Virus record (IMG/VR): IMGVR_UViG_3300009716_000731
Location: 32,001-96,000 of that record
Strand: one strand, 5' to 3'
Length of the DNA stretch: 64,000 nt
From: a virus
Taxonomy: Duplodnaviria; Caudoviricetes
Below the pieces are notes generated by a model. The model was not told where the DNA came from and did no database searches. It saw only the letters and a program-made list of their open reading frames with translations. A program made the position numbers and the translations under genes. Shown in pieces: positions 2,458-44,617 of this stretch. Every line of letters begins with the position of its first letter. Position 1 is the stretch's first letter.

Positions 2458-3700
2458 CTTTTATAGCAGGCATATAAATTTCAATCAAATCGATCAATTC
2501 TTTTTTACATTCTAAAGTCAATGATTTACTTTTATTTTGATTCATCAAAATCATAAATGAACTAACAACTTTATTAAACTTAAAAGCTTCTGTATAGTCA
2601 AATATAGTTTTCTTAAATACTTCTATGTCAATAGTTTCCTCACCAGTTTTTTCCAACCAAGTTTTCATTCGATTAATAAATCGTCTAATACCAATTATAT
2701 TTTCATCTGACCAAGAACCACCATCAAAATAGTGACCAATAAACATCAAGTAAAATCTAATTTCATCTGAGTCATAACCATCCAAACTTACTACATTATC
2801 TTTTGACTTAGACATTTTTTCACCATTATTCAATATCATTCCTTGGTGTATCAATTTAGTAATAGGTTCCTCAAAATCAATAAAACCTATATCATACAAA
2901 AACATTGTAATAAATCTAATGTAGATCAAATGCATACAAGCATGTTCTGATCCACCAATATACAAATCTGCTGGTTTTGGTTTAATACCTTTCATCAAAC
3001 AATAAACAATAGTATAGATAGAACTATCTACAAAAGTGTCCATTGTATCGGTCTCACCTTCAATTGGAATAGGACAACCCCAATTTCTTTGTCTTGATAC
3101 GCACCAATCATGTTGATTTTCCAACCAATTTCTTTGAGCTTTTATCGTTGATTCCGGAAAATCGATTTTATCCAAATTAGCAATCAATCTTTCTTTATAA
3201 TCAGTAATTCTAAAATACCATTGATTCAAAATTTTCTTTTCAACTTGATTTGAGCATCTATCACATTTACCATCTTTTACTTGCTCTCTTGCCAAGACGG
3301 TTTCGCAACTATTACAAAAGTCAACTTCACCATCTTTTTTATAAGCCAATCCTTTATCATACAATTGCTTAAACAACCACTGTGTCCATTTAATGTATTC
3401 AGCATCTGAAGTAATCAACATTTCCTCATATTGAGTATTCATGTTTTTCATTTGCTGTCTAAAGTTTTCTATATTTTCATAGGTAACTTCTCTTGGATCC
3501 CTACCTACTTTTTTCGCATAGTTTTCTGCAGGCAATCCAAAAGCATCATAACCAAAAGGTTGAAAAACGTTAAATCCTTGATAACGCTTATATCTACAAT
3601 AACTATCTACAATAGCATAGTTATACCAATGACCACAATGCAATCCTGACCCTGATGGGTAAGGAAACATTGGAGTTATATACAAATTTTTTTGATCCAT
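2441..3700 (-). CDS. leuS: Minimal leucyl-tRNA synthetase-like protein (class Ia)
   Basis: MFPYPSG..LHCGH (HIGH), GYDAFGLPAENYA, DWCVSRQRNWG, ETDTMDTF, YIGGSEHA, KMSKS; only 419 aa. Confidence 0.9.
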   Translation of the reverse strand: MDQKNLYITPMFPYPSGSGLHCGHWYNYAIVDSYCRYKRYQGFNVFQPFGYDAFGLPAENYAKKVGRDPREVTYENIENFRQQMKNMNTQYEEMLITSDAEYIKWTQWLFKQLYDKGLAYKKDGEVDFCNSCETVLAREQVKDGKCDRCSNQVEKKILNQWYFRITDYKERLIANLDKIDFPESTIKAQRNWLENQHDWCVSRQRNWGCPIPIEGETDTMDTFVDSSIYTIVYCLMKGIKPKPADLYIGGSEHACMHLIYIRFITMFLYDIGFIDFEEPITKLIHQGMILNNGEKMSKSKDNVVSLDGYDSDEIRFYLMFIGHYFDGGSWSDENIIGIRRFINRMKTWLEKTGEETIDIEVFKKTIFDYTEAFKFNKVVSSFMILMNQNKSKSLTLECKKELIDLIEIYMPAIKEKIRF

Positions 3701-3909
3701 TTTTTTACTTTATCTTTAAGTGTTGGTTTTAGTAAAGTTTGTAGCTTTTTATCTCTTTTGTCTATCTTTTCTTGTTGCTTACAATCGTCACATATACTTG
3801 GTCCGCTTACAAACCAAATTTCTCCTGTTTGGTTATTCATTTTAATATCTTCTCTGGTAGAAGGTGTAAATCTTTTACTACATTTCTCACAATCAAAATC
3901 AATCATCAT
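3676..3909 (-). CDS. Small Zn-finger protein with RDKKL motif
   Basis: CEKC...CDDC; KRDKKLQTLL near C-terminus. Confidence 0.6.
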   Translation of the reverse strand: MMIDFDCEKCSKRFTPSTREDIKMNNQTGEIWFVSGPSICDDCKQQEKIDKRDKKLQTLLKPTLKDKVKKWIKKICI

Positions 3910-4358
3910 TATATTGTGTATTTTTTTGTCATATCTGTACCAGCAAATTGTTCAATTTTGCGAATAGCAGATGATGATATATGTTCATATTCTTTATCAC
4001 AGGTTAGATAAATAACATTTATATCTTTCTTAAAATCACTTGTAAATCTAAATTGATTTACTTCATAATCTAAGTCAGTACCGTTTCGTAATCCTCTAAT
4101 TATAATTACTTTACAACCTTCTTTCTCATAATCTTCAACAAGTTCATGTAGAAATTTATTGTAAGTTATAACTGGTCGATTGAGTCGCTTTTCTATTTCT
4201 TTTGGGTCTTCTCTTTCGGGGTAGTTTTTATCTGGATTTATACCAATAGCAACTATGACATTTCCTTTACCAAAAATGCGCTCAGCTTTTTCAATGATGT
4301 TTAGGTGTCCAATATGCATTTTGTTAAATGAGCCGGGATAAATTGCTATTGTTCTCAT
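3909..4358 (-). CDS. coaD: Phosphopantetheine adenylyltransferase
   Basis: AIYPGSF..MHIGH, IIRGLR..DLDYE, ISSSAIR. Confidence 0.9.
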   Translation of the reverse strand: MRTIAIYPGSFNKMHIGHLNIIEKAERIFGKGNVIVAIGINPDKNYPEREDPKEIEKRLNRPVITYNKFLHELVEDYEKEGCKVIIIRGLRNGTDLDYEVNQFRFTSDFKKDINVIYLTCDKEYEHISSSAIRKIEQFAGTDMTKKYTI

Positions 4359-4443
4359 AATTCTTTTTGTATTATATAATTAAAATAATGATGTCCTCTA
4401 TGAAAAGGTTGATAATTATAACAAAATTAAGAAAAAATTTTTA

Positions 4444-5376
4444 CTATTCCAAACTTGCTAAGTATCTTTCAGCATCTAATGCTGCCATACAACCAGTACC
4501 TGCCGCAGTAATAGCTTGTCTATAAACATTATCTGCTACGTCACCGGCTGCAAAAACACCTGGTATATTAGTTTTAGTTGTTCCTTTTTCAGTAACGATA
4601 TATCCAGTTGAATCTAATGTTAAATAATCCTTAAATATATCTGTATTTGGCTTATGACCAATTGCTAAAAAGAATCCTGTTGCTGGTATCTCAGTTACTT
4701 CTTCTGTTAAGGTATTTTTAACTCTGATTTTAGTAACAACTTGACCGTCTCCAACAACTTCTTCGGTTACCGTGTTCATAAGTATTTCAATGTTTTCCGT
4801 ATTTTTAACTCTATCAACCATAATTTTAGAAGCTCTAAAATCACTTCTTACTAACATAGTTACTTTTTTACATATTTTAGATAAATAGTGTGCTTCTTCA
4901 CAAGCTGAGTCTCCAGCACCAACTACTACAACATTTTGATTTCTATAAAAGAATCCATCACAGATAGCACATGCAGAAACACCACCACCTAATTCTAAGT
5001 ATTTTTGTTCTCCTTTTACACCAGAGTATTTTGCAGTAGCTCCAGTTGATATAATTACGGTATCAGCTTCGATTTGATGATCGTGATTGATTGTAATTAT
5101 TTTTTTATCTGTTGAAAAATCTACTTTCGTTACCAAATTATTTCGTATGTCTGTACCAAATCTTTTAGCTTGTTCTTCCATGTTATTCATAAGATCAATA
5201 CCTTTTATACCATTTATAAAAGCTGGGTAATTTTCAACATCATTGGTTGTTGTTAGCTGTCCACCAGGTTGCATTCCTTGATATAAAACAGGTTTCATAT
5301 TTGCTCTTGCTGCATAAATTGCAGCGGTATACCCTGCAGGTCCTGATCCTATAATAATACATTTAACTTTTTCCAT
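4444..5376 (-). CDS. trxB: Thioredoxin reductase
   Basis: GSGPAG, GGQLTTT, CAICD, GAGDSA, FAAGDV, YRQAITAAG. Confidence 0.97.
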   Translation of the reverse strand: MEKVKCIIIGSGPAGYTAAIYAARANMKPVLYQGMQPGGQLTTTNDVENYPAFINGIKGIDLMNNMEEQAKRFGTDIRNNLVTKVDFSTDKKIITINHDHQIEADTVIISTGATAKYSGVKGEQKYLELGGGVSACAICDGFFYRNQNVVVVGAGDSACEEAHYLSKICKKVTMLVRSDFRASKIMVDRVKNTENIEILMNTVTEEVVGDGQVVTKIRVKNTLTEEVTEIPATGFFLAIGHKPNTDIFKDYLTLDSTGYIVTEKGTTKTNIPGVFAAGDVADNVYRQAITAAGTGCMAALDAERYLASLE

Positions 5377-5408
5377 AATATTTATATAATTATTACTATA
5401 TTTGTTTT

Positions 5409-5855
5409 ATGAATGCAACCAAAAAGTTAAGAGAATTAGGATTTACTAAGATACCTTTTCATAAGCCAAATCCATATAATGATGGAGAAGCTATGATACT
5501 GGATGATCATACTACTAAGCATGTAATTGATAATAAGACAGGTAGGTATGTTCAGGTAAAAGAAAAAAAGATACATCCAAAACAAGATTCACATTGGAAA
5601 TTGGTATTTAATGAACAATATATAATTTGGATTATGGTTAGTAATAATGTAGTTGATAAGGTTTATTTACAAGATAATTTTAATAAAACTAAGAAAACTG
5701 CATATGGATTCTCGTTAAGAAATGACTTAACAGAGTTATATAATTTTAATGGTAGTTTTGGTACATCCACTAAGATAGTTAGTAAAAAACAAATTATAAA
5801 CTTATTACCATTAAGTATTAAAAGAGATTTTATAATAAAAGATTTATTCAAATGA
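5409..5855 (+). CDS. Hypothetical protein with C-terminal motif variant
   Basis: ORF behind TATATTTG; ends KRDFIIKDLFK. Confidence 0.65.
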   Translation: MNATKKLRELGFTKIPFHKPNPYNDGEAMILDDHTTKHVIDNKTGRYVQVKEKKIHPKQDSHWKLVFNEQYIIWIMVSNNVVDKVYLQDNFNKTKKTAYGFSLRNDLTELYNFNGSFGTSTKIVSKKQIINLLPLSIKRDFIIKDLFK

Positions 5856-6040
5856 AAGAATATAAGCCAATAATAATAGATCATCTTGATCTGATAGGTG
5901 ATAAAACATATTTAGATGATGAAACATTATCGTCTTATCATGTTATGGCTTATAGATTAAAGAAGTTAGCTAAGAAAAATATGAGAAAAGTTAAACGAAT
6001 AGAAAAAATAAAAAGAATATGCCTGAAGGACCAGAATTAA
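5852..6040 (+). CDS. Small hypothetical protein
   Basis: Overlaps the end of the upstream gene by 4 nt; ends KRIEKIKRICL. Confidence 0.55.
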   Translation: MKEYKPIIIDHLDLIGDKTYLDDETLSSYHVMAYRLKKLAKKNMRKVKRIEKIKRICLKDQN

Positions 6041-6096
6041 AAGATATAGCTTATATAAGAGATCAAAAAATTGATAAATTATTAAACGATAAATAA
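6019..6096 (+). CDS. 25-aa mini-ORF MPEGPELKDIAYIRDQKIDKLLNDK
   Basis: Manual translation; Fpg/Nei-like N-terminus plus the C-terminal motif; ends at a terminator. Confidence 0.5.
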   Translation: MPEGPELKDIAYIRDQKIDKLLNDK

Positions 6097-7084: not shown

Positions 7085-7459
7085 TTATATTCCAATTTCA
7101 TTTAGTTTATTTTCTCTATACATTGGCATAAATACTTCTTCAAGAATAGTTAGGCTTTTTCTTTCTGAATCTGTTAGACTTGAAACTTTATATCTTAAGC
7201 TACTACCCGTATTTCTTTTGTTATTTAGTTCTTCGTAGATGTTTTTTATTTCTTCAATATCAATATCTTGATATTCACTTTCAATAACTATATCTTGTAT
7301 ATTATAATTTTGATGATAAATTTCTTGTGTGAATTCTTTTGATATTTGTTTACTTACTCTAATAAATTTTTGCTTACTTGTTTGATATATTACAACATTT
7401 AGTTGATCTTTTGACTCGTTTGTTAAAATTTCTGCTTTTATTAGCGTAAGTTCATCCAT
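7085..7459 (-). CDS. Hypothetical protein with C-terminal motif
   Basis: Ends YRENKLNEIGI. Confidence 0.65.
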   Translation of the reverse strand: MDELTLIKAEILTNESKDQLNVVIYQTSKQKFIRVSKQISKEFTQEIYHQNYNIQDIVIESEYQDIDIEEIKNIYEELNNKRNTGSSLRYKVSSLTDSERKSLTILEEVFMPMYRENKLNEIGI

Positions 7460-10812: not shown

Positions 10813-12387
10813 TTATTGACACTCGTAGCAGTCTCTTCTTCCTCTACCACCACATTCATCACACTCTTGCTCACCAGAGCCATCACAACGTGAACATTCA
10901 TATTCACCAGTTCCATCACAATTTGAACACTCTTCTCTACCTGATCCATCGCAACGATTACAATTTCTGGTTCCTTCACCGTCACAAGTAGTACAAGTTT
11001 CTCCATCAACTTCACCAGTTCCATCACAAGTTGAACAATCTTCTACACCTTCTCCATCACAGTAACCACAATCAACTTGACCACCACCGCTACAGTCATA
11101 ACATTCTACATTACCGCTGCCGTGACATCTGTAACAACTTTCTACACCACTTCCGCTACATTCACCACATTCAATTTCACCAGATCCACCACATTCGTCA
11201 CAAGAACCGTTGCCACCAGAAGTATCTGTTAGTTCATAATCGTATGAGTTAGAGGTACCATTATAAAGATAACCTGCTGTATCGTAGTACTTGAAGCTAT
11301 CCATATAAGGATAGTATCTCATACCATTCCATTTTAGTTTAATTTCTGCTTTGCTTTCATCATAACTTAATTCATTACCATTAAACATTAAGGTCATATC
11401 ACTATATGTTTGATATTTTTTATAATTAAATCCTTTCTCAATTGCAAATTCCTTAAATAAGGTTTCATCAGCAGAATTTATAACATAAACTCTATCCATT
11501 ATTTTTCTACCTTGTACATCAGTCCAAAGTAATGCTCTTCCGATTATTTTACTTTCATCGTCTTTAGCTTTAAGTATGATTAGTTGACATACTTCTGGAT
11601 TTTTAACATATATATCTAAATAAGGTTGACATTTATCATATCTCATACAAGAACCACCTAATGTACCTGCAATTTTATAATAATTATCTGCTAAGTACCA
11701 ATATCTTATTTGTTCCTCTTTAACTATTTCAAATCTACTAAATACATCTTTTTCTTTTTGAATAGTTGCTTTATACTTATTAACAAAATCTTCAATTTGT
11801 CTATCTGTAAATTCTATATCAGCTTTTCTTAATATAGCTCTAAGAAATCTACCAACATTCATATCAGATTTTGTTAGTTTATTTATATCATATTCAATAC
11901 CTCTATGAGCTATGAAGTTTTGATACTCTTTATTATTTACTTCCCAAGTAATAAGACAAAATGGAATTGTTTTCATTTTTCTTCCATAAATCTTATCTAT
12001 TTCTTCTTGTTTTAGATTTTTAATTTTAACTTCTTCACCTGTTCGTGGATAACCTTCCTCACCTAATGGATAAGTTCCTTCCTCTTTTGCTTTTTCGAAC
12101 ATACCAGAATAAACTTCATCTGGATTTTTTACTTTAGCAGGTGCTCTTTTAATTCTATCTTCTGGTATAAAGAAAATCTTATCTTCCTTATCTAAATCAA
12201 ATGTGATATGATTAGTGTTTACATCTACTTCTTTTCCTTGTAAAGAAAGTAATTTGTCTTTTAGTTCACTACCTTTTATAAGGTTTAGTAAGTCAACAAA
12301 TTTTTTATCAAATACTATATTTGCTTCGAGTAGTAACTGTAATTGACTTTCATTAATAAAGTCAGCATATTTATTTAAGTTTCTCAT
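10813..12387 (-). CDS. SCM/GRALLW-domain protein with 12 CxxC DnaJ-type Zn repeats (paralog 1)
   Basis: SCMRY, GRALLW, MDRVY, YPYMDSFKY; 11 CxxCxGxG plus a terminal CxxC. Confidence 0.8.
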   Translation of the reverse strand: MRNLNKYADFINESQLQLLLEANIVFDKKFVDLLNLIKGSELKDKLLSLQGKEVDVNTNHITFDLDKEDKIFFIPEDRIKRAPAKVKNPDEVYSGMFEKAKEEGTYPLGEEGYPRTGEEVKIKNLKQEEIDKIYGRKMKTIPFCLITWEVNNKEYQNFIAHRGIEYDINKLTKSDMNVGRFLRAILRKADIEFTDRQIEDFVNKYKATIQKEKDVFSRFEIVKEEQIRYWYLADNYYKIAGTLGGSCMRYDKCQPYLDIYVKNPEVCQLIILKAKDDESKIIGRALLWTDVQGRKIMDRVYVINSADETLFKEFAIEKGFNYKKYQTYSDMTLMFNGNELSYDESKAEIKLKWNGMRYYPYMDSFKYYDTAGYLYNGTSNSYDYELTDTSGGNGSCDECGGSGEIECGECSGSGVESCYRCHGSGNVECYDCSGGGQVDCGYCDGEGVEDCSTCDGTGEVDGETCTTCDGEGTRNCNRCDGSGREECSNCDGTGEYECSRCDGSGEQECDECGGRGRRDCYECQ

Positions 12388-12440
12388 AAATGTATATATT
12401 AAAAAAAGATTTATAGAAATTAATTTTAATATATATATTT

Positions 12441-14045
12441 ATGAAATATATCAAATTTTTTGAAGAAGCAAATATTAATCTTTTAGAATTAGATAAGCTT
12501 AAAGGTGTTGATACAAGAGGACAAATATTAGTTAATAAATTATCATCTAATGAGCCTAAATTAGATTTTAATAAAGGCGAACAACTAGTTAATCTAATGT
12601 TAAATATGGATGACGAGTGGGTTATTCCAAGTATTGCAATTCAAGATATTCTAACAAATGGTTCTTATGATTCTGATAAAGCTAAACAATTATTCTTGAA
12701 AAACAATAGATATAAAGACGTTTTTAAGTCTGGTACTGATACTTATAAACTAAATCAAGTAAAGAAAACTCCAGATTTTGGATCTTCTGGTCCTGGTATT
12801 TTAACTAAAAAGTATGAGATAATACAGTCATTATTTATTGCATATAAGATTACTTACCCTAATTTAGATCTAACAACTTCTAATATATCAAGCTTTCTAC
12901 AAGATTATAAACAACAAAAAAGTGATAATGCTAAAAAAGGTGTTCTTAAAAGAATCGGATTACATATAGATATAGATGTGATTAGTGATGAAGATATTTT
13001 AGAGTTATCTAATAATAAAGATTGGTTTTCGACTTTCACTAGAATACCTGAAGCTTTATGGAATATGACAATTGGTAGAAATAGATTATTTTCAACAACT
13101 GGTAAATATTTATTTTTTCATATAACTAATAAAGATATAGATTCTCCTGTGTTTAAGCTAACTAAAAAATTTAACTCATTTACTAAAGGAGTTAAAATAG
13201 GATTTCCTAAGTTTTGTCCGGCTGATCTTTGGGTTGTTAAAGCAAATGCTTTACCAGAAATAAATAGAGCTATAGATTCTTGTGTTAATATAAATGATTT
13301 AATAACTTTGGTGGATATGTATTTTGGTAGTATTGATATGATACCAATATCTCTTAAAAAGGTTCTAAAAGGAGAAAGTTTCAAAATTATTGTTAATCGT
13401 ACGGTAGGTAAAAAGCTTCCAGACTTTTATATTAAAAGTTTTATGTTGGCAGATGACCCTTTCAAAGGAGCGGGAACAACAATAGTAACAAAATCTGTTT
13501 GGACTAGTGAAAATCCAGTACCAGGTGAAAAACCAGAGGAGCTTGAGAGAGTTGTTAAAATTGATTCATCTGAGAAAGGTAAAGCAATTGATGCTGAAAT
13601 CACTGGAAAAAGTTCAAAACAAGGTAAAATATCTTTTGATGCTATTAATAGAATTATTAATACACATCGAGCACATTGTAATCTTATAAAAATTGATACT
13701 TTGTCTGAGTTAAAACCATTAAGTATAGAGCAACTTAAAGTTAAGATACAAACTCATTATGATATTTTAACAAATTTAAGACTTGTAAATGCTAATATTG
13801 CTTATCAAACAGCAACAAGATTAAGTTCAAAAGGTAAAGAGTATCAAACAAGATTAAAAACTTTAACAACCGAACACGATTTTATGACTAAGTTACAAGC
13901 CTTACAAGTTACTATTTGTATAGCTCAGGTTTATATGGATAGTCCTATTGAAGGTAATAAATTAATGACAAGTTTAATGAGATATGCGTTATCTATTCAA
14001 ACTGATGTATTTGATACAACTCCAAAATATTTAAGGGTTATATAA
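12441..14045 (+). CDS. Putative PD-(D/E)xK nuclease with CTS-like tag
   Basis: CPADLWVV...IPISLKK motif; starts MKYIKFFEE. Confidence 0.55.
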   Translation: MKYIKFFEEANINLLELDKLKGVDTRGQILVNKLSSNEPKLDFNKGEQLVNLMLNMDDEWVIPSIAIQDILTNGSYDSDKAKQLFLKNNRYKDVFKSGTDTYKLNQVKKTPDFGSSGPGILTKKYEIIQSLFIAYKITYPNLDLTTSNISSFLQDYKQQKSDNAKKGVLKRIGLHIDIDVISDEDILELSNNKDWFSTFTRIPEALWNMTIGRNRLFSTTGKYLFFHITNKDIDSPVFKLTKKFNSFTKGVKIGFPKFCPADLWVVKANALPEINRAIDSCVNINDLITLVDMYFGSIDMIPISLKKVLKGESFKIIVNRTVGKKLPDFYIKSFMLADDPFKGAGTTIVTKSVWTSENPVPGEKPEELERVVKIDSSEKGKAIDAEITGKSSKQGKISFDAINRIINTHRAHCNLIKIDTLSELKPLSIEQLKVKIQTHYDILTNLRLVNANIAYQTATRLSSKGKEYQTRLKTLTTEHDFMTKLQALQVTICIAQVYMDSPIEGNKLMTSLMRYALSIQTDVFDTTPKYLRVI

Positions 14046-14331
14046 ATCTTTTTACATTACCCATTTTATCAAGTATTACATTTTTACCATCTTTTCTTCT
14101 TGCGATAATTTCAATACCTGAAAATCTTGCTTCATAAATATCATTAGCTAAGGTTCTAACAGGATTACCCATTGCGTCTTTTAATATTAGTTTACCATCA
14201 TTAGCAGTAACTAAAAATTGATTACTATCTTGATCAAAAGTGGCAAAATTAACATTTTCTGCAATTCTTCTTCCTGGATTTCCCCATTTATCACATACAT
14301 ACAAAGTACCATTTAATATCTTAAATAACAT
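14038..14331 (-). CDS. Small protein with three internal DxxGN repeats
   Basis: DKWGNPGRRI / DAMGNPVRTL / DKMGNVKRFI. Confidence 0.65.
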   Translation of the reverse strand: MLFKILNGTLYVCDKWGNPGRRIAENVNFATFDQDSNQFLVTANDGKLILKDAMGNPVRTLANDIYEARFSGIEIIARRKDGKNVILDKMGNVKRFI

Positions 14332-14748: not shown

Positions 14749-14755
14749 ACACATA

Positions 14756-16271: not shown

Positions 16272-16658
16272 TTAAATTATTTCTTCGATTTTTTTATCCC
16301 TTAATTCAGCAATTGTCGGAATTTCATATACAAAGATATGAAAATAATTTGAATTATTCACAACATGCATATTCAAATTATTAGATGTGGAAGACATATT
16401 TAGCTGAGGTTCTGTAACCAAGCAACTTTTAACATACTTATAAAATTCAGGAACTTCAAAGTCTTCTATAGTTGAATCTATAATCATTAAGTCAATAATC
16501 TTTTTTTGTTCTGACTCTATATTATTTGAGTATAATAATTTTATTGTATTTGTGTAAGGTATACAAATATCAATTAATTCGCTAAACTCAGGTATGTTTA
16601 TTATATAAGTTGTTCTATCTTGTAGATAGATATATTCAGTTATAGTTTTATACCTCAT
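16272..16658 (-). CDS. Hypothetical protein with C-terminal motif
   Basis: Ends LRDKKIEEII. Confidence 0.65.
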   Translation of the reverse strand: MRYKTITEYIYLQDRTTYIINIPEFSELIDICIPYTNTIKLLYSNNIESEQKKIIDLMIIDSTIEDFEVPEFYKYVKSCLVTEPQLNMSSTSNNLNMHVVNNSNYFHIFVYEIPTIAELRDKKIEEII

Positions 16659-16996
16659 ATTCCTATTTTTTTAAGTTTTATTTCTCTATAATGTTGTATA
16701 TCATCTAAAATATAAACATCATGCTTAGTTAAAAATATAAAATCATCTATATTTTCAATTATATTTTCTGTTGTACTGAGTTTAATTACTCCTTTTATCG
16801 ATTCTATACGATTATCAACTTTTATGGAAGATTCATTTGTAACTATTCCTTTACTCTTCATTAAAGAATATTTCTTTGATATAATATCATAAGCTATATC
16901 AAAATATTTATTTTCCATATCTATTATGATAAATCTAATTTCATTTATATTCTCAGTATAATTTCTTATTATATTACCAATTTTAATTACTTCCAT
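16655..16996 (-). CDS. Hypothetical protein with C-terminal motif
   Basis: Ends YREIKLKKIGI. Confidence 0.65.
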   Translation of the reverse strand: MEVIKIGNIIRNYTENINEIRFIIIDMENKYFDIAYDIISKKYSLMKSKGIVTNESSIKVDNRIESIKGVIKLSTTENIIENIDDFIFLTKHDVYILDDIQHYREIKLKKIGI

Positions 16997-17396
16997 CTAA
17001 TAATTTATCTATTTGTAGATCTCTATTAAAAGGCACCCAGTCAAAATTATCTTGTACAGTTGGTATGTTACTTTTATAGATGAATTTTTTAATTCTATAT
17101 TTTCTTCTTATTTCCTTGTTTGTTGTAACAAGGAAAGACTCTGGTCTAATTATACCTTTTATTTTGATATATCTAACGTCAACATCTTTTGTATATAAAT
17201 CAGTGATTCTTTTATATTCTGCTATTGATTCTTCGCCTTTTGAAAAATCAATATTTATATCATTATAATAATTATCAATATCTGTTATAATGCTTATTTT
17301 ATCGATATAAATTTCCTCTACATCATACTCTTCACCATAAAAATAGTTTGGTATAACATAGTCTAATTGTTTTTTATTTATATATCTGATCTTCAT
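16983..17396 (-). CDS. Hypothetical protein with C-terminal motif
   Basis: Likely start MKIRY; ends NRDLQIDKLLDGSN. Confidence 0.65.
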   Translation of the reverse strand: MKIRYINKKQLDYVIPNYFYGEEYDVEEIYIDKISIITDIDNYYNDINIDFSKGEESIAEYKRITDLYTKDVDVRYIKIKGIIRPESFLVTTNKEIRRKYRIKKFIYKSNIPTVQDNFDWVPFNRDLQIDKLLDGSN

Positions 17397-20354: not shown

Positions 20355-20711
20355 ATGGAAATAAAAGTAGTCAATAATATCGCATTTAGGGTTATTCAAA
20401 GAATGGATTTTCCATTTGATGAAGAGTTTATTATAGCAGAAGATATTTCACATTTCTATGCGGATGCTAATACTATAAATATAGTTCTTTTAAGAGATAA
20501 TCCAACCAAGCCAATTATGACATATAAAGATGTCTTAGAAGAGATTGAGTATTTATATGATGATTCTATTAGATGGAGAAGTGATGAGATTAGAGATAAG
20601 CTACGTTTTTTTTATCATAAAGTATCTAATATAATGAAAACTTATAAAAGAGAAGAAAAGATTAATAAACTATTACAAGTAAATAAATGGGAGTTACATC
20701 TAGCATGTTAA
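20355..20711 (+). CDS. Hypothetical protein with C-terminal motif
   Basis: KREEKINKLL; TATCTTTG upstream. Confidence 0.65.
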   Translation: MEIKVVNNIAFRVIQRMDFPFDEEFIIAEDISHFYADANTINIVLLRDNPTKPIMTYKDVLEEIEYLYDDSIRWRSDEIRDKLRFFYHKVSNIMKTYKREEKINKLLQVNKWELHLAC

Positions 20712-21208
20712 AAAATAAAATATATTTATTTGATAAATGGTTATCTAGTGGTGAAAATATGCTTTATTTATTATCATTACTGATTATATCAGTAGTAATG
20801 ACTAATTTTGAAGTAACTCTTTTCTATGGTATTGGCTTATTATCACTTATTTGCTTTTATATGGTTTTTATTAAAATGAAAATCAATTCTAAAGAATGGC
20901 AACTTGATAAGTCGGTTTATAAATTACCAATAGTAGGTGAAACAATAGTTGTGCAAAAAGACTTTAAGTATGATTTAGCTAAGGTTCAAAATAGTAAAAA
21001 TTATATTTATAGTAAGGCGCTACAAAACTTACTAAAAGGATTTGAATTTGATGTAGTTAGTATAGAAGAATTGGAAGATGATTGGATAGTTGAATTACAA
21101 TTTAATTCAAGAAGTAAGCCTATTGAATTATTTTGGTTAGATGTAAAAGATTACTTTATGACAATTGCAGATATAAGAGAAGATAAATTAAATAAATTAT
21201 TAAAATAA
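20687..21208 (+). CDS. Membrane protein (2 TM) with C-terminal motif
   Basis: Two hydrophobic helices; ends IREDKLNKLLK. Confidence 0.65.
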   Translation: MGVTSSMLKNKIYLFDKWLSSGENMLYLLSLLIISVVMTNFEVTLFYGIGLLSLICFYMVFIKMKINSKEWQLDKSVYKLPIVGETIVVQKDFKYDLAKVQNSKNYIYSKALQNLLKGFEFDVVSIEELEDDWIVELQFNSRSKPIELFWLDVKDYFMTIADIREDKLNKLLK

Positions 21209-25835: not shown

Positions 25836-25863
25836 AAAAAAGGAGACTAATGTCTCCTTTTTT
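25834..25863. terminator. Bidirectional intrinsic terminator
   Basis: A-run GGAGAC-TAAT-GTCTCC T-run. Confidence 0.8.
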
Positions 25864-26599
25864 ATTTTTTCAAAACTTCTTTGGTGTAATACTCATCAAA
25901 TCCATTAAGATAAGTAGTAATTGGTGTTGATTTTTCTGTAATGATAATCTCATCAATAAAACCAAAGTCTAATGCTTCTTGTGAATTTAACCATTTATCA
26001 CGTCTTGCACTTTCTAAAACTTCATCAAAAGATTTTCCACTATTTTCTGCCAACATTTTGAAAAGAACATAGTTATATTTTTCTGATTCCATTTGAGAGA
26101 TACGATTATCTTCAACGTGACCACTTGCTCCAGAAGAAACTTGGTGAATCATAACTTTTGAGAAATTAAGAGAAGCTCTTTTACCTTTTGTTCCTGATGA
26201 TAAAAGAATTGAACCCATAGATGCTGCCATACCAGTGTTGATTGTTTGTACATCTGAGTTGATATATCTCATAACATCTACCATACCAAGACCTGCTAGT
26301 ACTGAACCTCCTGGTGTATTAACATGCATTGTTATGTCTTTTTTCTCAACGGAGTCTAAATACATTAGCTGAGCTTGGACAACATTACACATTTGCTCAT
26401 TAACAACACCGGCTACCCAGATAATTCTATCTCTCATTAAGCGAGAGAATACATCAATTTGAGTCATTCTCATTTCTCTTTCTTCAAGAATGTAAGGGGT
26501 CATACTATTCTCTACTAAATTTTTTTCAAAGTAGTGTAAATTCATAGATGAGATACCATTACTTAGTGCGTACTTTTCAAAATCTTTTTTAATATCCAT
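25862..26599 (-). CDS. clpP: ATP-dependent Clp protease proteolytic subunit
   Basis: DVFSRLMRDRII, NTPGGSV, AASMG, MIHQ, RDKWL. Confidence 0.95.
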   Translation of the reverse strand: MDIKKDFEKYALSNGISSMNLHYFEKNLVENSMTPYILEEREMRMTQIDVFSRLMRDRIIWVAGVVNEQMCNVVQAQLMYLDSVEKKDITMHVNTPGGSVLAGLGMVDVMRYINSDVQTINTGMAASMGSILLSSGTKGKRASLNFSKVMIHQVSSGASGHVEDNRISQMESEKYNYVLFKMLAENSGKSFDEVLESARRDKWLNSQEALDFGFIDEIIITEKSTPITTYLNGFDEYYTKEVLKK

Positions 26600-26674: not shown

Positions 26675-27550
26675 ATGAAAAAAACATTTATTTACGGATT
26701 ATTTTCAGAAAGGGATAATATCATAAGATATATTGGTAAATCTGATAACCCTAATAAGAGGTTAAAAACACATATTTATCAAATGAATGATAGTAATACT
26801 CATAAAAATAATTGGATTAGAAAAGTAGTTTCAAATGGGGAAAAATTATGCTATAAAATAATTGAGGAGGTTTATTATCATGAGTGGAGACAGAAAGAAA
26901 TATTCTGGATTAGTAAATATAGCAATTTAGTCAATACATCTAAGGGTGGTCAAGGTGGTAGAGGTATTAAATATAATATATCATATGAGGATTGTAAAAA
27001 ATGGATTTCTGAAAACCTTACTATTAAAAGTAAAAGTAATTGGATGTTAAATAGTAAAAATTTACCCGACTTTATACCAAAAAATCCATACGAAACCTAT
27101 AAGAGTAGAGGATGGGTATCATGGGGTGATTTTTTATCTACTAATAGAGTACAAGATAATAAGTTATGCAATTATCTTTCCTATGAGGAAGCAAAAGAGT
27201 GGATAAAACTAAACATGTCGAATAACATAAATAGTAAAAATTGGAAAACAGTTAATAAAAACGAATTAATTCCTAATAGACCTGAAAGATATTATAGAAA
27301 TAAAGGTTGGATATCTTGGTCTGATTTTTTATCAAATAACAGAGTACAGAATCAAAAAAAAGAGTTTTTAGGTTATGATGATTTTATTAATTTTTTTATA
27401 GAGAATAAAATAATAATATCAAATATTTCTGATTGGTATAAATTTAGAAAAGATGCTCCTATTTTTATATGCAGTCGACCAGATATTTATTATAAAAATA
27501 AAGGTTGGATATCATGGGTGGAATTTTATAAAAAAATTATTATTTGTTAA
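26675..27550 (+). CDS. GIY-YIG homing endonuclease with three PxxPxxxY..GWxSW repeats
   Basis: FIYGL...RYIGKS, KRLKTH, KEIFWI; repeated C-terminal units. Confidence 0.85.
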   Translation: MKKTFIYGLFSERDNIIRYIGKSDNPNKRLKTHIYQMNDSNTHKNNWIRKVVSNGEKLCYKIIEEVYYHEWRQKEIFWISKYSNLVNTSKGGQGGRGIKYNISYEDCKKWISENLTIKSKSNWMLNSKNLPDFIPKNPYETYKSRGWVSWGDFLSTNRVQDNKLCNYLSYEEAKEWIKLNMSNNINSKNWKTVNKNELIPNRPERYYRNKGWISWSDFLSNNRVQNQKKEFLGYDDFINFFIENKIIISNISDWYKFRKDAPIFICSRPDIYYKNKGWISWVEFYKKIIIC

Positions 27551-27584
27551 ATATTTTTCATATTTTTGTCAAAAATATACAAAT

Positions 27585-28178
27585 ATGAAAAACGCGATTA
27601 AGCTATTTGACTTTGAAGGTACGCCGGTTTACCTTAAATACTGGTTCTTTATTTTACTTTTGCTAGGAATAGATAAATTTATTTCTATTTTTATTGCTGT
27701 ATTAGTTCATGAATTAGCACATACTTATGTAGCTAAAAAATTAAATCATTATGTAGATCACGTTTATTTAGATTTACTTAATGGTGCTGCTGCTATTGAT
27801 ACATCATATTCTTCTTATAAAGACACAATTAAAATTGTGGCAGCAGGACCTATTTCTAATTTACTTTTGTTTGGTATTGGTTCTTTTCTAATGAGTGTTA
27901 TACCTAGTAGCTTCTTAGAAACCTTTTGTTTTATTAATATTCTATTGTTTATTTTTAATATTTTACCAATTTATCCATTGGATGGTGGTCGAATTAGTAA
28001 AGCTTGTATGCAGTGGTTGACTAAACCATCTACTGGTCGAAAGTATAATGGATATTTATCAATGGTTACAAGTATCCTTTTAATGATATTTGGAATATAT
28101 TCACAAGATATTATTTTATCATTATTTTGCATCTTTTTCATTTATATCGCATATAAAGAAATAACACAATTATATTAA
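27585..28178 (+). CDS. Site-2 (M50) intramembrane metalloprotease
   Basis: HELAH, AAGP, FNILPIYPLDGG; multiple TM segments. Confidence 0.92.
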   Translation: MKNAIKLFDFEGTPVYLKYWFFILLLLGIDKFISIFIAVLVHELAHTYVAKKLNHYVDHVYLDLLNGAAAIDTSYSSYKDTIKIVAAGPISNLLLFGIGSFLMSVIPSSFLETFCFINILLFIFNILPIYPLDGGRISKACMQWLTKPSTGRKYNGYLSMVTSILLMIFGIYSQDIILSLFCIFFIYIAYKEITQLY

Positions 28179-28684
28179 TGTTAGATATAGGTAAAACAAA
28201 TCTTTTCTTAAACGAGAACAGTTATGTTGTTAGTAGAATAATAAATTATTACGATCTTATGGGTCGTAATTGTTTATTTTTAGACGGTGTTGATAGTAAT
28301 ATACATGTTAAATGTAGCAAGATTACTGTTACTTCCAATAACATATCAGAGTTACTAATTAATAATCTTTTTAGAGTTGATATTATTATTGCAACTTCTA
28401 TGACAAGATATGATACTTTATTAAGTAAAATTAGAGAAGTTACAGATTTACCCGTTATATTGATTACTGATAATTTTATCTATTCGGAAAAAGATTTACA
28501 AAATTTCGATTTTATATACAGATTGTATAAAATAGATGATACTAGTTATATAAATTTTGAAGATTATGAAAATAAATTTTTAGAAAAATCAAGAGTTAAT
28601 GACATTAAAAATAGTTGGGATATGTCATTAGCAGATATAAAGAAACAATATATTAGAGAAGAAAAAATTAATAAATTATTATAA
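28178..28684 (+). CDS. Hypothetical protein with C-terminal motif
   Basis: Ends IREEKINKLL. Confidence 0.65.
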   Translation: MLDIGKTNLFLNENSYVVSRIINYYDLMGRNCLFLDGVDSNIHVKCSKITVTSNNISELLINNLFRVDIIIATSMTRYDTLLSKIREVTDLPVILITDNFIYSEKDLQNFDFIYRLYKIDDTSYINFEDYENKFLEKSRVNDIKNSWDMSLADIKKQYIREEKINKLL

Positions 28685-28688: not shown

Positions 28689-29114
28689 ATGAGTAAAGCT
28701 TATGTTATTTTAGAAAAAGGTTATGAATATGATGATAACATTTATAATCAAACTGATGGTGGTGATCCAAGACTAATTTGTTTCAGTAAAGAAGATGCTG
28801 AACAAAGAATTAAAGAGCTTAATATTAAAGAATATAAGACAACTTCTATTAGAAATTATGCTTATGATGTATCAGAAATTTTGAATGTTGATTTAGCAGA
28901 ATATGAAGCATTTCAAAAAGAAATGAATGATAAATATGGTAAGGTAAAATCAAAATATTCTTGTGATAGTGATGAATTCAAGCTACATGAATCAGCAAAT
29001 GAAGAAGAAGCTCTTCGTTATCAACGAATGGTAGATATATCATTCTATGAGTACAAAGAAACTGATATTGATGTACAAAGTCACCGAGACAAAAAAATTA
29101 ATGATATTCTATAA
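28689..29114 (+). CDS. Hypothetical protein with C-terminal motif
   Basis: Ends HRDKKINDIL. Confidence 0.65.
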   Translation: MSKAYVILEKGYEYDDNIYNQTDGGDPRLICFSKEDAEQRIKELNIKEYKTTSIRNYAYDVSEILNVDLAEYEAFQKEMNDKYGKVKSKYSCDSDEFKLHESANEEEALRYQRMVDISFYEYKETDIDVQSHRDKKINDIL

Positions 29115-35232: not shown

Positions 35233-36483
35233 ATGAAACAACAACTTGTAGATTTGATACATAGCAAAGCGCCTGGTTCTAAACCACTTTTCTTGGTGGT
35301 TAGAGGTTCTCATGCTTATGGTACAAATATAGAAACATCAGACGTCGATTATGCTGGTGTATTTATCCAGTCATTAGATGATATATTGGGTAGTAAATAT
35401 GTAGAGCAAGTAAATGATGATAAGAATGATATTGTTATTTATGAAATAAGACGATTTTTAGAGCTTTTAGGTAAAAACAATCCAACTGTATTAGAACTTC
35501 TTAATACACCAGAGGATTGTATTATTTATAAAGATCCTGTTTTTGATATGATTTTAGAAAATAGAGATCAATTTATTACTAAAGTTTGTGCTAGATCGTT
35601 TGGTGGTTATGCTACTACTCAAATTAATAAATCAAAAGGACTTAATAAGAAACAAAACTGGGAGAAAGATAAAGTAACTCGTAAAGATTTGCTCGACTTC
35701 TGTTATGTTATTGAAGGAGAAAAGTCTATACCTTGGAAAGTATGGAATAATGGCACTTATGAAGAAAAGTTTATAGGTGCTGTAAATATTCCACACGCTA
35801 GAGATATGTATGCTTTATTTTATGATATAAATGCTTATCATGCTTTTAGTGAATCAGTTCCACAAAATGTTAGAGAAGCACATATTAAACTTAGAAAGGA
35901 TGCTGATTTACCAGTAGGTTTAGGTTACAAAGGTTTAGTTAAGCTTGGTGATGTTCTTGAGAAGTCTGATGAAAATGGTATGTTGGATATTAGTACAGAA
36001 GAACTAAAAAATTACATTTCTGGTTCTATTGTGAATTCTAATCAACTACGTCTTTCAAGTATTCCAAAAGGTGAGACTCCAATTTGTACAATTTTCTATA
36101 ACAAAGATGGTTACTCTGAGCATTGTAAAGACTTTAGAGAATATGAGGAATGGTTAGAGAAAAGAAACACTCAAAGATGGGTTGATGTTAAATCACACGG
36201 TCAACAAATCGACGGTAAAAATATGCTTCATTGTGTAAGATTAGTTGATATGTCTCGTGAGATTGCAGAAGGTAAAGGAATTATAGTAAGACGACCTAAT
36301 GCTGAGCAACTTCTTGCGATTAGAAGAGGTGAAGTTGATCTTCAATCTTTGATTGATTATGTTGAAAAAGAGATTGTTGAAGTCGATAGAATTTTCAAAG
36401 AGTCTAATCTACCTGATAAAGTATCAGAAGAGTTTATAAATGATTTGTTAATTAAAATTAGAAAAATATCATATGGTTTTTAG
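35233..36483 (+). CDS. Pol-beta family nucleotidyltransferase (RlaP/NrdC.11-like)
   Basis: RGSHAYGT...SDVDYAGVF, NNPTVLELL, DGKNMLHCVRL. Confidence 0.88.
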   Translation: MKQQLVDLIHSKAPGSKPLFLVVRGSHAYGTNIETSDVDYAGVFIQSLDDILGSKYVEQVNDDKNDIVIYEIRRFLELLGKNNPTVLELLNTPEDCIIYKDPVFDMILENRDQFITKVCARSFGGYATTQINKSKGLNKKQNWEKDKVTRKDLLDFCYVIEGEKSIPWKVWNNGTYEEKFIGAVNIPHARDMYALFYDINAYHAFSESVPQNVREAHIKLRKDADLPVGLGYKGLVKLGDVLEKSDENGMLDISTEELKNYISGSIVNSNQLRLSSIPKGETPICTIFYNKDGYSEHCKDFREYEEWLEKRNTQRWVDVKSHGQQIDGKNMLHCVRLVDMSREIAEGKGIIVRRPNAEQLLAIRRGEVDLQSLIDYVEKEIVEVDRIFKESNLPDKVSEEFINDLLIKIRKISYGF

Positions 36484-37078
36484 TATTGCGTGTTTAGGAT
36501 TTTTTTGTTTAGGTATTCTTTTAACTAACTTGTATAATAAAATTATGTACAAGAGAGAATCTGATAAGATATTAAAAGAGAGAAATTCATTCTTTTCTAA
36601 GGTTTTAGAAAAAATCTATTCTAATGAGGTTCAATTTAAGGATAGAATAAATAATTCTGTTACGTTAACAACGTCAATTGAAGGAACTGGTTTTATTGAT
36701 ATTGTTTATATTATGGATAATAGACAAGACGTTGCTATTTTTAGAAATGGTAAGTGTATTTATACAACCGATGGTATTGATGAAAATATTGTTGATGAAT
36801 TGATAACTACTATTAATATCTATTTCAAGTCAGAGATAAATGATGTTATAAGTGTTTTAGGTATGATATTTTATAAACCTACATTTGAATCAAAATTTGG
36901 AATTAAGTTATCTGACTTAAAAGCAATGTATAATTTCGATGAAGAGTTTGAAAATAAAGCTAAGCAAAAAAGTGTTAAGTCTTATAATATAGATGAAATC
37001 TTGGACAAAATTAGTGCTCAAGGTATTCAAAGCTTAACTTTAGAAGAGAAAAAGTTTTTAGATAACTATAATGGATGA
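36473..37078 (+). CDS. Membrane-anchored protein with C-terminal DUF6576-like helix pair
   Basis: N-terminal TM; IDEILDKISAQGIQSLTLEEKKFL. Confidence 0.7.
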   Translation: MVFSIACLGFFCLGILLTNLYNKIMYKRESDKILKERNSFFSKVLEKIYSNEVQFKDRINNSVTLTTSIEGTGFIDIVYIMDNRQDVAIFRNGKCIYTTDGIDENIVDELITTINIYFKSEINDVISVLGMIFYKPTFESKFGIKLSDLKAMYNFDEEFENKAKQKSVKSYNIDEILDKISAQGIQSLTLEEKKFLDNYNG

Positions 37079-37373
37079 TATTAATACCGTAAGTCAATTT
37101 GTTATAAAAGATTATAGAACTATACAAGGTACGATAAATATCATCTTTGAGATAGATAATAACTACTTTTATATTGAAGATGATTTTGAAAAAATAAAAG
37201 ATGTTGATAAGATGCCGGTTTATATAAAAAAAGACTGGTATAAGTATAATAAAAAAGAATTAACACTTGAAGTTATTAATTCTCATATTTCATTCTCTAA
37301 AGAATTAGAAGATGATGATTTATTTAGAAACTTGGTATCTATACGAAGAGATTATATTATTGATAAACTATAA
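37071..37373 (+). CDS. Hypothetical protein with C-terminal motif variant
   Basis: Ends IRRDYIIDKL. Confidence 0.6.
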   Translation: MDDINTVSQFVIKDYRTIQGTINIIFEIDNNYFYIEDDFEKIKDVDKMPVYIKKDWYKYNKKELTLEVINSHISFSKELEDDDLFRNLVSIRRDYIIDKL

Positions 37374-39504: not shown

Positions 39505-39786
39505 ATGGCAACTATAACTAAAACAAAAACAAAATCAAAGGTACAAAGTATTCTTTCTAAACCTTATCGTCTTATATTGCATAATGATGATTATAATACT
39601 TTTTCACATGTTATTGAATCATTAGTTAAAATTTGTAAACATGATTATACTCAGGCTGAACAATGTGCTAATATAATTCATTTTAATGGTAAATGTGATG
39701 TTAAATATGGAGATTATGAAACTATAAGTGACATGTTAGATAAGTTAAGAAATCTTGGTTTATGTGCGACCATGGAGTCTAACTAA
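39505..39786 (+). CDS. clpS: Clp protease adaptor ClpS
   Basis: LILHNDDYNTFSHVIESL...AEQCA.IIHFNGKCDVK. Confidence 0.93.
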   Translation: MATITKTKTKSKVQSILSKPYRLILHNDDYNTFSHVIESLVKICKHDYTQAEQCANIIHFNGKCDVKYGDYETISDMLDKLRNLGLCATMESN

Positions 39787-43485: not shown

Positions 43486-43836
43486 TTTTCCAACTTGCCT
43501 ACTCGCCATTAAGATATTAAATCTATTTTTTACAAAGTTTTCTAGTATTTCTTCTTGATAATCTCTTAGTTGTATATGATCAATTGAACCATCTTCTGTT
43601 TTTACCTTACAGTACTTTTCTGTGAAGTAATCTACGTTTAAGGCACATTTTATATATTCTTCTTGTTCTTCTGGTGACATTCTAAAAGAAACACCAGCTC
43701 TTCTCAAACCTACTTCGGACTTTAACCAAGGGTTCTGAAACCTCTTAATAACTATACCGTCATTGATCTTATCGGTTGCTTCATCAACAAGTCTAGTAGT
43801 AAAGACCATTTGTCTTTCTTGTTCTTGTTTAGCCAT
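43297..43836 (-). CDS. terL: Terminase large subunit N-terminal part, fused to N-intein
   Basis: EEYIKCA...YF.EKYC, LRDYQ, MASRQVGK|CFSF. Confidence 0.92.
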   Translation of the reverse strand: MAKQEQERQMVFTTRLVDEATDKINDGIVIKRFQNPWLKSEVGLRRAGVSFRMSPEEQEEYIKCALNVDYFTEKYCKVKTEDGSIDHIQLRDYQEEILENFVKNRFNILMASRQVGKCFSFNSICSIEKNGIQIDFRVGKLYYYILKQERKLSLLEKVKIKLYDILFYLENINQPERKP

Positions 43837-43905
43837 AGGAGTATTTATTTTTTTATATATATTGTAAAAAACCATCTACATATGTCAAAACAAGAACAAG
43901 AAAGA
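43813..43905. repeat. Perfect 18-bp inverted repeat enclosing the divergent promoter and both ATGs
   Basis: TCTTTCTTGTTCTTGTTT (43813-43830) and AAACAAGAACAAGAAAGA (43888-43905). Confidence 0.85.
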
Positions 43906-44505
43906 ATTAGATTACAAGATGAGTTCGATCAAATACAATCAGAAAACTCTGAATTTGATATATCAAAGCACTTAGCAAGACCTGAGGATTTACCTGATTT
44001 AGGTGAAATTGAGCTTTATGATTACGATGCTGATTTAACTGTTTCGATGCAACAATCAATGGGTGTATTGGAGTCGTTAGTTGATTTATATTTAAGTGAT
44101 ATACCTAAACTTAAAGATCACAATTATATAAAAAATAAAATGCGTGAAGATGCTACTGTTTATGCAGAAGCGCTTTTTTTAGCTAAAATGACTAGAAAAA
44201 ACTTTTTATCACAATTAAAACAAGTTGATAATGGTGATAATGCTGCTAGAATGCACGAGGTTGTCAATCAAACAATTGGTCAGATTAGAGAGAATAGTAA
44301 ATTCCTTTTAACACAAAGAACTGAACTTGAAAAGTTTTATAAGACTTTAAGAAAAGACTTAGGTTATAATGAAATTGAGAATCCAGAAGTTAAGAAAGCA
44401 GAAGAACAACAAAATTCAGAAGAAAGTAATGATGGAATGGTTATGGATAATAGAAAGCTTAATGATTTAATTAAGAACGCTATGGTTAAAAAAGACGAGA
44501 AATAA
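43882..44505 (+). CDS. Helical protein divergent from terL (small terminase candidate)
   Basis: Position and helical composition; C-terminal DNRKLNDLIK; starts MSKQEQER. Confidence 0.55.
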   Translation: MSKQEQERIRLQDEFDQIQSENSEFDISKHLARPEDLPDLGEIELYDYDADLTVSMQQSMGVLESLVDLYLSDIPKLKDHNYIKNKMREDATVYAEALFLAKMTRKNFLSQLKQVDNGDNAARMHEVVNQTIGQIRENSKFLLTQRTELEKFYKTLRKDLGYNEIENPEVKKAEEQQNSEESNDGMVMDNRKLNDLIKNAMVKKDEK

Positions 44506-44506
44506 T

Positions 44507-44617
44507 ATGCCACTACCGCATTATCCCAATCCACAGGGATTTAATTGGAGTCCTAAGTTCAAGAAAATACTTAGAATTAAGAAGATTAAGAGAATTATAG
44601 AGAAACTTGAAAAATAA
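44507..44617 (+). CDS. 36-aa mini-ORF MPLPHYPNPQG...LRIKKIKRIIEKLEK
   Basis: Manual translation; starts 1 nt after the upstream stop. Confidence 0.5.
   Translation: MPLPHYPNPQGFNWSPKFKKILRIKKIKRIIEKLEK

Follow-up and report, generated by a model that had tools for sequence, protein, structure and literature searches.

Why should many small proteins of one phage, with nothing else in common, end in nearly the same nine residues? The question arises in a window of 64,000 nucleotides (bases 32001-96000 of the 151,253-bp virus record IMGVR_UViG_3300009716_000731; 27.4% G+C). A sequence-only reading had noticed there a shared tail, R-[DE]-x-K-[IL]-x-x-[IL], on about 15 small open reading frames (ORFs), and had proposed that it is a docking helix sending accessory proteins to one hub. 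Here, we have found this tail, hereafter the tag, on about 6 to 15% of the proteins in a clade of huge (250-640 kb) Bacteroidota phages. We suggest that it could be a portable helix that a single partner, evolving along with it, recognizes in order to dock the proteins that carry it or to dispose of them at a set time, a reading that we find plausible and only a little short of probable.

Enrichment of the tag at protein C termini

The consensus of the tag is [KLIV]-[SQAE]-x-x-R-[DEN]-x-K-[IL]-[NDKE]-x-[IL]-[LGI]-[KNID]-stop. Statistics for the record itself are based on 201 crude gene calls over its whole 151 kb. The pattern R-[DE]-x-[KQI]-[IL]-x-x-[IL] has 17 matches there, of which 14 fall inside the last 18 residues of the protein. 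A strict form of the motif occurs in 8 tails, against 0.04-0.08 in shuffles (highest 2), and a loose form in 12, against about 0.1. Shuffling was applied either to each whole protein or to its last 30 residues only (tail matches 0.04-0.13, highest 4), and reversing the proteins of the same gene calls gave 0 tail matches. The signal extends to eight records, namely this one and seven IMG/VR relatives, all of which have the tag. At a score of at least 10 with a position-specific scoring matrix (PSSM) of the tag, 232 of their 2389 proteins have the tag, whereas the rate of internal matches predicts 4.2. At the cut-off of 12 used for single genomes, the tagged share of genes is 15% in the 476-kb relative, 9% in the 385-kb relative and 6.5% in the record itself. 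The supposed C-terminal enrichment is therefore real when set against shuffled and internal sequence. The sequence-only count of about 15 instances stands for the most part: 12 are solid R-[DE] tags, and three are weak R-I-x-K-I variants, one of them without an ATG-started ORF. What had been located were ORFs rather than motifs, and each peptide lies at or near the C terminus of the ORF named.

The form of the tag is well constrained. Its end lies 0-2 residues before the stop codon in 117 of 177 tags and at most 17 residues away. The carriers are small, with a median of 120 amino acids (aa), and include proteins of 42-75 aa. Arg1 never varies, and [DEN]2 and Lys4 hardly do, in over 100 unrelated bodies. 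The logo of the 177 tags has only three conserved hydrophobic positions, and the residues upstream are information-poor; position 8 is I/L/V and position 9 is L/G/I, F making up only 7% at the latter. After the 9-mer comes K, N, I or D, as in the endings ..ILK*, ..LGI* and ..LLN*, and the last residue is variable and often charged. Arg1, the acidic residue 2, Lys4 and the hydrophobic triad 5/8/9 (h-x-x-h-h) would form one face of a helix of two to three turns. A single partner recognizing this face could handle a large and fast-changing set of early accessory proteins as one class, by tethering them to a common hub or by removing them at a set time.

Could base composition produce such tails? 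The equally AT-rich phages Lak-A1 (26% G+C) and LR756500 (24% G+C) have 0 and 1 tagged tails. Hence, composition cannot explain the tag.

Unrelated bodies and a conserved tail

An all-against-all BLASTP comparison of the carriers in the record linked them only via their tails, and the bodies had no matches. With the tails removed, 177 carriers fall into 118 families by BLAST and 109 by jackhmmer, and the 75 carriers of the 476-kb relative fall into 70 families. The carrier bodies are thus unrelated by both methods, as they had looked to the sequence-only reading. Searches of the carriers against Pfam and PHROGs gave almost no matches: nine of 145 carriers match Pfam, to different small families (DUF1660, DUF6011, Cse60, DUF2158, TacA1), and the DUF1660 match ends upstream of the tag. 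We rejected descent from one paralogous family with a shared domain, since no body homology was detectable by BLASTP or jackhmmer and the Pfam matches differ; at the level of folds the comparison covers two models only. Neither Zn ribbons nor membrane segments are enriched in the carrier bodies, which are slightly more acidic than other small proteins.

The tail persists where the body changes. Of the 98 homologues that carrier bodies have, 79 end in the tag and 17 more in a degenerate form of it. Across 42 orthologous families, identity is 62% in the tag 9-mer and 44% in the body, and in 33 of these families the 9-mer is conserved better. In the family of the carrier at 28178 the tail is the best-conserved segment among 88 homologues, down to 41% overall identity.

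Conservation of a peptide, not of a nucleotide signal

The tag might be a by-product of selection on nucleotides, if the A-rich 3' end of a gene served as the initiation region of a coupled next gene in a host that does without Shine-Dalgarno pairing. The tag codons are indeed A-rich, and overlap with the following gene is seen in 44% of tagged genes and in 19% of small genes without a tag. Codon use in 213 tags tells otherwise: at Arg1, [DE]2, Lys4 and the Ile/Leu positions it equals genome-wide use (for Arg, AGA 77% versus 78% and CGT 12% versus 9%), and in the window the carriers encode the conserved residues with several codons. The Gly of the ..L-G-I-stop ending uses all four codons (GGA, GGT, GGC, GGG), which is how a helix cap would behave, and not a ribosome-binding site. 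Furthermore, the next gene lies on the other strand for 19% of tagged genes and beyond a gap of more than 30 nt for 15%, so that 34% have no closely following gene on the same strand. A helical, amphipathic pattern with an invariant Arg, and the equally AT-rich relatives without the tag, also speak against selection on nucleotides. This explanation is already contradicted by the codon use and the following-gene data, and we consider it extremely improbable. The tag is conserved at the peptide level, and the early remark that its codons vary agrees with their genome-like use.

Distribution and drift among huge phages

The record is 26% complete according to CheckV and encodes a large terminase (TerL), a 1354-aa tail sheath, topoisomerase II and homing endonucleases, together with ClpP, ClpS, an M50 protease and a NusA homologue. 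By the sheath protein its closest GenBank records are LR745206, LR756502, LR756504 and LR756501 (uncultured, 634-735 kb), followed by the Prevotella Lak phages. The four are "Mahaphage" genomes of Al-Shayeb et al. 2020, with Bacteroidetes as predicted hosts (PMC7162821). Searching the carrier region against GenBank phages with megablast gave no match. At 80 loci, the flanks of TerL held 1 tail match in 1529 proteins. Because this structural module is nearly tag-free, the relatives were read whole; they comprise four fragments and three records of 249, 385 and 476 kb (90-97% complete). Below, G007 denotes the 476-kb relative, and G008 and G009 are 95% and 90% complete.

Sister clades have drifted versions of the tag. 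In LR756504 these are [YH]-R-K-x-I-I-x-[DE]-L-L and R-K-x-R-I-x-N-L-N (75 of 598 genes), and in LR756501 the variant is R-T-[KE]-L-[IM]-D-x-M-L-N (18 of 547 genes). Such forms (R-K-x-I-I-x-D-L-L, R-K-x-R-I-x-N-L, R-T-K-L-I-D-x-M-L-N) would be expected of a tag that co-evolves with its reader. A profile of the tag, too short to map its range, had only 2 matches at E <= 0.001 among 1.84 billion proteins, one of them C-terminal. Pfam gave nothing consistent for 43 isolated tails at E <= 10, and a tail profile had no match among PDB sequences. No description of the tag was found in Pfam, PDB sequences or the literature, as the sequence-only reading had also held.

Promoter classes and an N-terminal tag

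Genes were sorted into classes by whichever promoter-like motif comes first at the head of their unit. Tagged genes lie in TAnnTTTG units in 119 cases and in WATATATA/TATAAATA units in 33, against 319 and 1227 for all other genes (odds ratio 13.9, p 2e-46). This confirms the impression that many carriers lie in TAnnTTTG operons. The TAnnTTTG boxes are preceded, at a distance of about 20 nt, by a TTTG-like element, an arrangement that matches the layout of Bacteroidota promoters.

The same genomes have an N-terminal tag, M-K-Y-I-K-x-F-E, whose genes show the opposite preference (7 in TAnnTTTG units versus 135 in WATATATA/TATAAATA units). None of 213 carriers of the C-terminal tag has both, against 13.7 expected, in line with the original observation that no carrier has an N-terminal tag resembling a capsid targeting sequence (CTS). 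In its broader form, M-[KR]-[YH]-[IL]-[KR]-x-[FY]-[EN], the N-terminal tag occurs on 154 proteins in the eight records, and nearly all of their genes have the WATATATA/TATAAATA motif 12-35 nt upstream of the start codon. Examples in the window are 12441-14045, 18386-18865, 57347-57730 and 63544-64122.

A bolder proposal, which we see as doubtful if not out of reach, is that the "Mahaphage" group of huge Bacteroidota phages uses a proteome-wide code. A clade-specific C-terminal helix would mark 10-15% of genes, a third of the early ones, and a single co-evolving reader would gather, regulate or destroy the carriers as a class. If so, alongside the N-terminal head-loading tag on late proteins, the same genomes would have a second, matching tag for the early phase.

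Recognition helix, structural module or degron

The helical nature of the tag raises a further question: does it serve a partner or its own protein? As a structural module, with no common reader, the tag would act as a generic C-terminal "staple" helix, packing against the body of its own protein or pairing it into dimers or oligomers, and would be a cheap stabilizer of tiny, fast-evolving proteins. We regard this as unlikely. In its favour, AlphaFold2 sets the motif in compact folds in both proteins modelled. The family at 28178 (44 sequences; predicted local distance difference test [pLDDT] 75, predicted template modelling score [pTM] 0.72) gave an alpha/beta fold with the tag in the last helix, residues 151-167, inside the compact model of the 168-aa carrier. 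A Foldseek search with this model returned only generic Rossmann-like or RecA-like rows at a template modelling score of about 0.45. The motif is also internal and conserved in two proteins. A 555-aa XPD/DinG-like helicase (L097:6875-8542, minus strand; orthologues in G004, G007 and G008) has the copy D-K-R-D-L-K-I-x-K-L at residue 246, followed by a polar linker. A core protein of 140-150 aa (L138:17966-18394, which is 133966-134394 of the own record, minus strand; orthologues in G002, G003, G004, G007, G008 and G009) has W-K-S-F-Y-R-E-I-K-L-N-Y-L-L at residues 33-46 as its best-conserved segment; the motif proper, at 33-41, falls within helix 31-43 of the compact domain that AlphaFold2 predicts (pLDDT 85, pTM 0.81). 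The best structural match of this core protein, a weak one, is the T4 prohead protease gp21 (Z 6.4, 111 residues); the core protein has no conserved Ser or His, and the ESM Atlas gave no usable match for its 142-aa form. Because there are internal copies in a confidently folded domain, the tag is not strictly a free C-terminal tail, and since the predicted structure builds the copy into such a domain, the motif can apparently be an ordinary structural helix within a fold.

Other features also fit a structural module. Polar or Gly linkers come after the conserved internal copies, much as where a domain ends, and the free choice of Gly codons in L-G-I-stop is as for a helix C-cap. Moreover, a different tail of DUF6576 type is present in the window, and short C-terminal helical modules such as SHOCT are known. 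Yet the invariant Arg1 and near-invariant [DEN]2 and Lys4, on so many unrelated bodies and even on the smallest proteins, are more than packing needs. Three hydrophobic positions downstream of information-poor residues are weak for a coiled coil, and the whole tag population drifts together by clade, which points to an outside constraint.

Would the partner of a recognition helix then be a protease? As a degron, the tag would have early proteins removed at the late switch by a machine of the Clp, Lon or FtsH type, together with the phage ClpP, ClpS or ClpA-like genes. We judge this distinctly improbable; it is a special case of the recognition helix, and our higher estimate for the latter stands apart from it. 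Timed removal could draw on the ClpP and ClpS that the phages carry and, in some, on a ClpA-like ATPase without an N-domain. The closeness of the tag to the C terminus in two thirds of cases and the early gene class of the carriers are consistent with a degron, as is the presence of ClpP and ClpS in the window. ClpP lies at 25862..26599 (minus strand), and ClpS, with the N-degron pocket residues NDD and H conserved, at 39505..39786 (plus strand). An M50 site-2-protease-like gene (27453..28178, plus strand) heads a unit with the carriers 28178 and 28689, and the order ClpP, M50, two carriers, a 29x-aa gene and NusA is conserved in the viral-contig loci L121-L131. The NusA homologue itself (NusA_N and KH domains; window 30028-31260, plus strand) lies directly downstream of the unit of M50 and the two carriers, an order found in ten related loci.

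The details of the tag fit a degron poorly, given the variable and often charged last residue, the distance to the stop of up to 17 residues, the conserved internal copies within folded domains and the lack of likeness to Ala-Ala endings of the ssrA type. The distribution of the Clp genes does so as well. The nine records whose tag has the R-[DE/K] form (all eight and LR756504) contain ClpS, which is absent from LR756501, LR756500 and Lak-A1; LR756501 nevertheless has a tag variant. The ClpA-like ATPase without an N-domain is found only in G002, G007 and G008 among the eight records; it was not found in the own record, where a GIY-YIG gene occupies the syntenic site, nor by BLASTP among the gene calls of G009. 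BLASTP likewise found no ClpP among the gene calls of G008. M50 and NusA were found only in G000 and G002 among the eight records. A complex prediction for the phage ClpS with the last 39 residues of the 28178 family, run without controls, scored 0.00, a value that weighs neither way on binding.

Some neighbours and homologues of these candidates deserve mention. The ClpA-like gene of G002 (L085:10208-12268, plus strand) encodes a 686-aa double AAA+ ATPase that lacks the customary N-domain. At the syntenic site of the own record (27969-29066, plus strand) lies a 365-aa GIY-YIG homing-endonuclease-like gene, and a GluRS-like gene and an HD-domain gene are common neighbours of the two. A 151-aa core protein (46159-46614) has the same distribution as ClpS, being present in the tag clade and LR756504 and not in LR756501; its 207-aa and 286-aa neighbours are also present in LR756501. 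The core 286-aa protein (window 45032-45892, minus strand) matches the ribosomal silencing factor RsfS only weakly (E 0.0013, short of the cut-off for the family); LR756504 and LR756501 contain it, and it was not found in LR756500 or Lak-A1.

Several points count against a recognition helix with one reader, beginning with the tag helix inside the compact carrier model, the two conserved internal copies and the folded domain predicted around one of them. Our search by presence and absence found no phage gene that tracks the tag perfectly, and each phage Clp component (ClpS, ClpP, ClpA-like) is absent from at least one tag-bearing phage. Carriers often stand in tandem, translationally coupled arrays: G007 has 44 adjacent pairs against 13.9 expected, and one array holds 22 carriers in 16 kb. 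Such arrays point to duplication and fast divergence as the source of part of the carrier set, and some "unrelated" bodies may be unrecognizable paralogues. The assignment of the TAnnTTTG class as early and the WATATATA class as late is an inference from promoter-like motifs only, and over the whole window TAnnTTTG shows no enrichment (96 found versus 116 expected). Finally, the idea of one partner is drawn by analogy with other shared tags. From the initial proposal, a portable, helix-forming C-terminal motif can be retained; the single hub is still conjectural: no reader was found, and the Clp components are each missing somewhere.

Comparison with known systems

The CTS of the T4 internal proteins IPI-III and Alt is a short peptide common to unrelated proteins that acts as an address; it is N-terminal and is cut off by the prohead protease. 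The tag is likewise a short peptide on unrelated proteins, in a phage group that also has the N-terminal M-K-Y-I-K-x-F-E tag. However, it is C-terminal and lies in TAnnTTTG (early-type) genes, whereas the CTS-like genes lie behind WATATATA (135 versus 7). A T4-type CTS, with its N-terminal position, its prohead-protease site L/I-x-E and its late or virion class, was rejected for the tag, which is C-terminal, of the TAnnTTTG class and never found with the N-terminal tag.

The C-degrons of AAA+ proteases (ssrA, ClpX C-motifs 1 and 2, the MuA tail RRKKAI) are also short C-terminal signals on many unrelated proteins, basic and then hydrophobic, and the tag-bearing phage codes for ClpP and ClpS. 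Unlike them, the tag has no Ala-Ala and no fixed last residue, follows a helical h-x-x-h-h pattern, varies in its distance to the stop and has internal copies, and no Clp component is common to all tag-bearing phages. An ssrA-like or ClpX C-motif 1 degron (small non-polar L-A-A or A-A at the very C terminus, its carboxylate free) was rejected, as there are no Ala-Ala endings among the carrier tails listed for the window, G007, LR756504 and LR756501.

Clamp-binding tails (T4 gp43, gp33 and gp55; PIP box Q-x-x-h-x-x-a-a) offer another comparison, as motifs near the C terminus of unrelated proteins, which in the case of the clamp dock in one groove of the hub. The tag shares the h-x-x-h-h spacing familiar from the PIP box but lacks its Gln and aromatic pair and has the invariant Arg and Lys instead. 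It occurs on 6-15% of genes, mostly of tiny early proteins, and not on replication or late-transcription factors. A PIP-box or clamp motif (Q1 with aromatic 7-8, or Q-L-[SD]-L-F) was rejected, because the tag has no Gln at the equivalent position and its positions 8 and 9 are for the most part aliphatic or Gly.

SHOCT (PF09851) is a short C-terminal helical module on many unrelated proteins that ends much like K-K-x-x-L-L. The tag is of the same general kind but lacks the G-x-L-T-x-E-E-F half, and these phages have a separate SHOCT-like or DUF6576-like tail on other proteins. SHOCT itself was rejected: the 28-position profile G-x-[IL]-[TS]-x-E-E-[FY]-x-x-K-K-x-x-L-L has 0 matches in the own record at E <= 10 and 0 among 43 tails, and control genomes match. 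The DUF6576 tail (..G-I-x-S-L-T-x-E-E-K-x-F-L-D..) is on two unrelated proteins of the window (36473-37078, plus strand; 47596-48141, minus strand), and a core protein of a relative has the SHOCT-like tail G-I-L-T-D-E-E-F-x-x-K-K-A-E-L-L.

A looser analogy could be drawn to effector addressing motifs such as the oomycete RxLR, a constant short motif on hypervariable small bodies in clustered parasite gene sets. RxLR is N-terminal, eukaryotic and concerned with secretion or host uptake, and has no sequence relation to the tag.

Most genes of huge phages encode small proteins of unknown function, and a tag on 6-15% of them would offer one experimental handle on them as a class: a single pull-down or reporter assay might reveal where or how early takeover proteins are handled by the phage. 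The two tags exclude each other and may sort much of this proteome from sequence only, into an early part (C-terminal tag, host-type promoters) and a late or virion part (N-terminal tag, WATATATA). The drift of the tag by clade could serve as a natural co-variation experiment for finding its reader.

Instances in the window

The 77-aa carrier at 3676..3909 (minus strand) is Zn-ribbon-like and has RDKKLQTLL at nt 3730-3756, followed by 17 residues (PSSM 20.9). At 5409..5855 (plus strand) a 148-aa carrier has the Ile-at-4 variant RDFIIKDLF (nt 5823-5849), then K-stop; its G002 orthologue has the C terminus RDFVIRDLLK. The 62-aa ORF at 5852..6040 (plus strand) has a weak variant without D/E at position 2, RIEKIKRIC (nt 5996-6022), in a tail conserved in the G002 orthologue, which ends RKEKIKRICQN. 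Little beyond the tag is encoded by the 25-codon ORF at 6019..6096 (plus strand), MPEGPELKDIAYI-RDQKIDKLL-NDK (tag at nt 6058-6084; PSSM 29.5). G002 has a 266-aa gene starting MPELAEV at the same place, a start that the seven leading residues of the short ORF resemble; hence, the ORF is probably the remnant of a gene after a deletion, or else a tag-only peptide.

On the minus strand, the 124-aa carrier at 7085..7459 has RENKLNEIG at nt 7091-7117, then I-stop (the "LGI" ending), and the 128-aa carrier at 16272..16658 has RDKKIEEII at nt 16275-16301, directly before the stop. The 113-aa carrier at 16655..16996 (minus strand) has REIKLKKIG at nt 16661-16687, then I-stop, and stop and start overlap as ATGA between it and the next carrier. 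The 137-aa carrier at 16983..17396 (minus strand; 151 aa from the GTG at 17438) has RDLQIDKLL at nt 16998-17024, then DGSN-stop. In the 118-aa carrier at 20355..20711 (plus strand) REEKINKLL (nt 20649-20675) lies 12 residues before the stop, and the extra tail overlaps the next gene. The tag of the 173-aa carrier at 20687..21208 (plus strand), REDKLNKLL (nt 21176-21202), precedes K-stop, and the next gene is on the other strand.

The 168-aa carrier at 28178..28684 (plus strand), which ends in REEKINKLL (nt 28655-28681) and the stop, is a core early gene of the clade, present in 7 of the 8 records. Next to it, the 141-aa carrier at 28689..29114 (plus strand) ends in RDKKINDIL (nt 29085-29111) and the stop, and its orthologues in 10 relatives end in FRDYKI(N/D/S)EVLK or YRDTKINSILD. 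The 100-aa carrier at 37071..37373 (plus strand) has RDYIIDKL at nt 37347-37370, directly before the stop, and is followed by a hairpin-like terminator. Two other weak variants are RIVKIKNIL at 23018, for which no ATG-started ORF is available, and RIKKIKRII (nt 44573-44599; PSSM 10.2) in a 36-codon ORF at 44507..44617 (plus strand), a doubtful gene.

A different, acidic and aromatic tail is found in LR756500.1 (462 kb, loci L241-L260), a relative without the R-type tag, where at least 8 proteins of 160-370 aa end N-A-D-D-F-G-F-[FL]-D-N, with example sites at 11706-17016 and 124308-125087.

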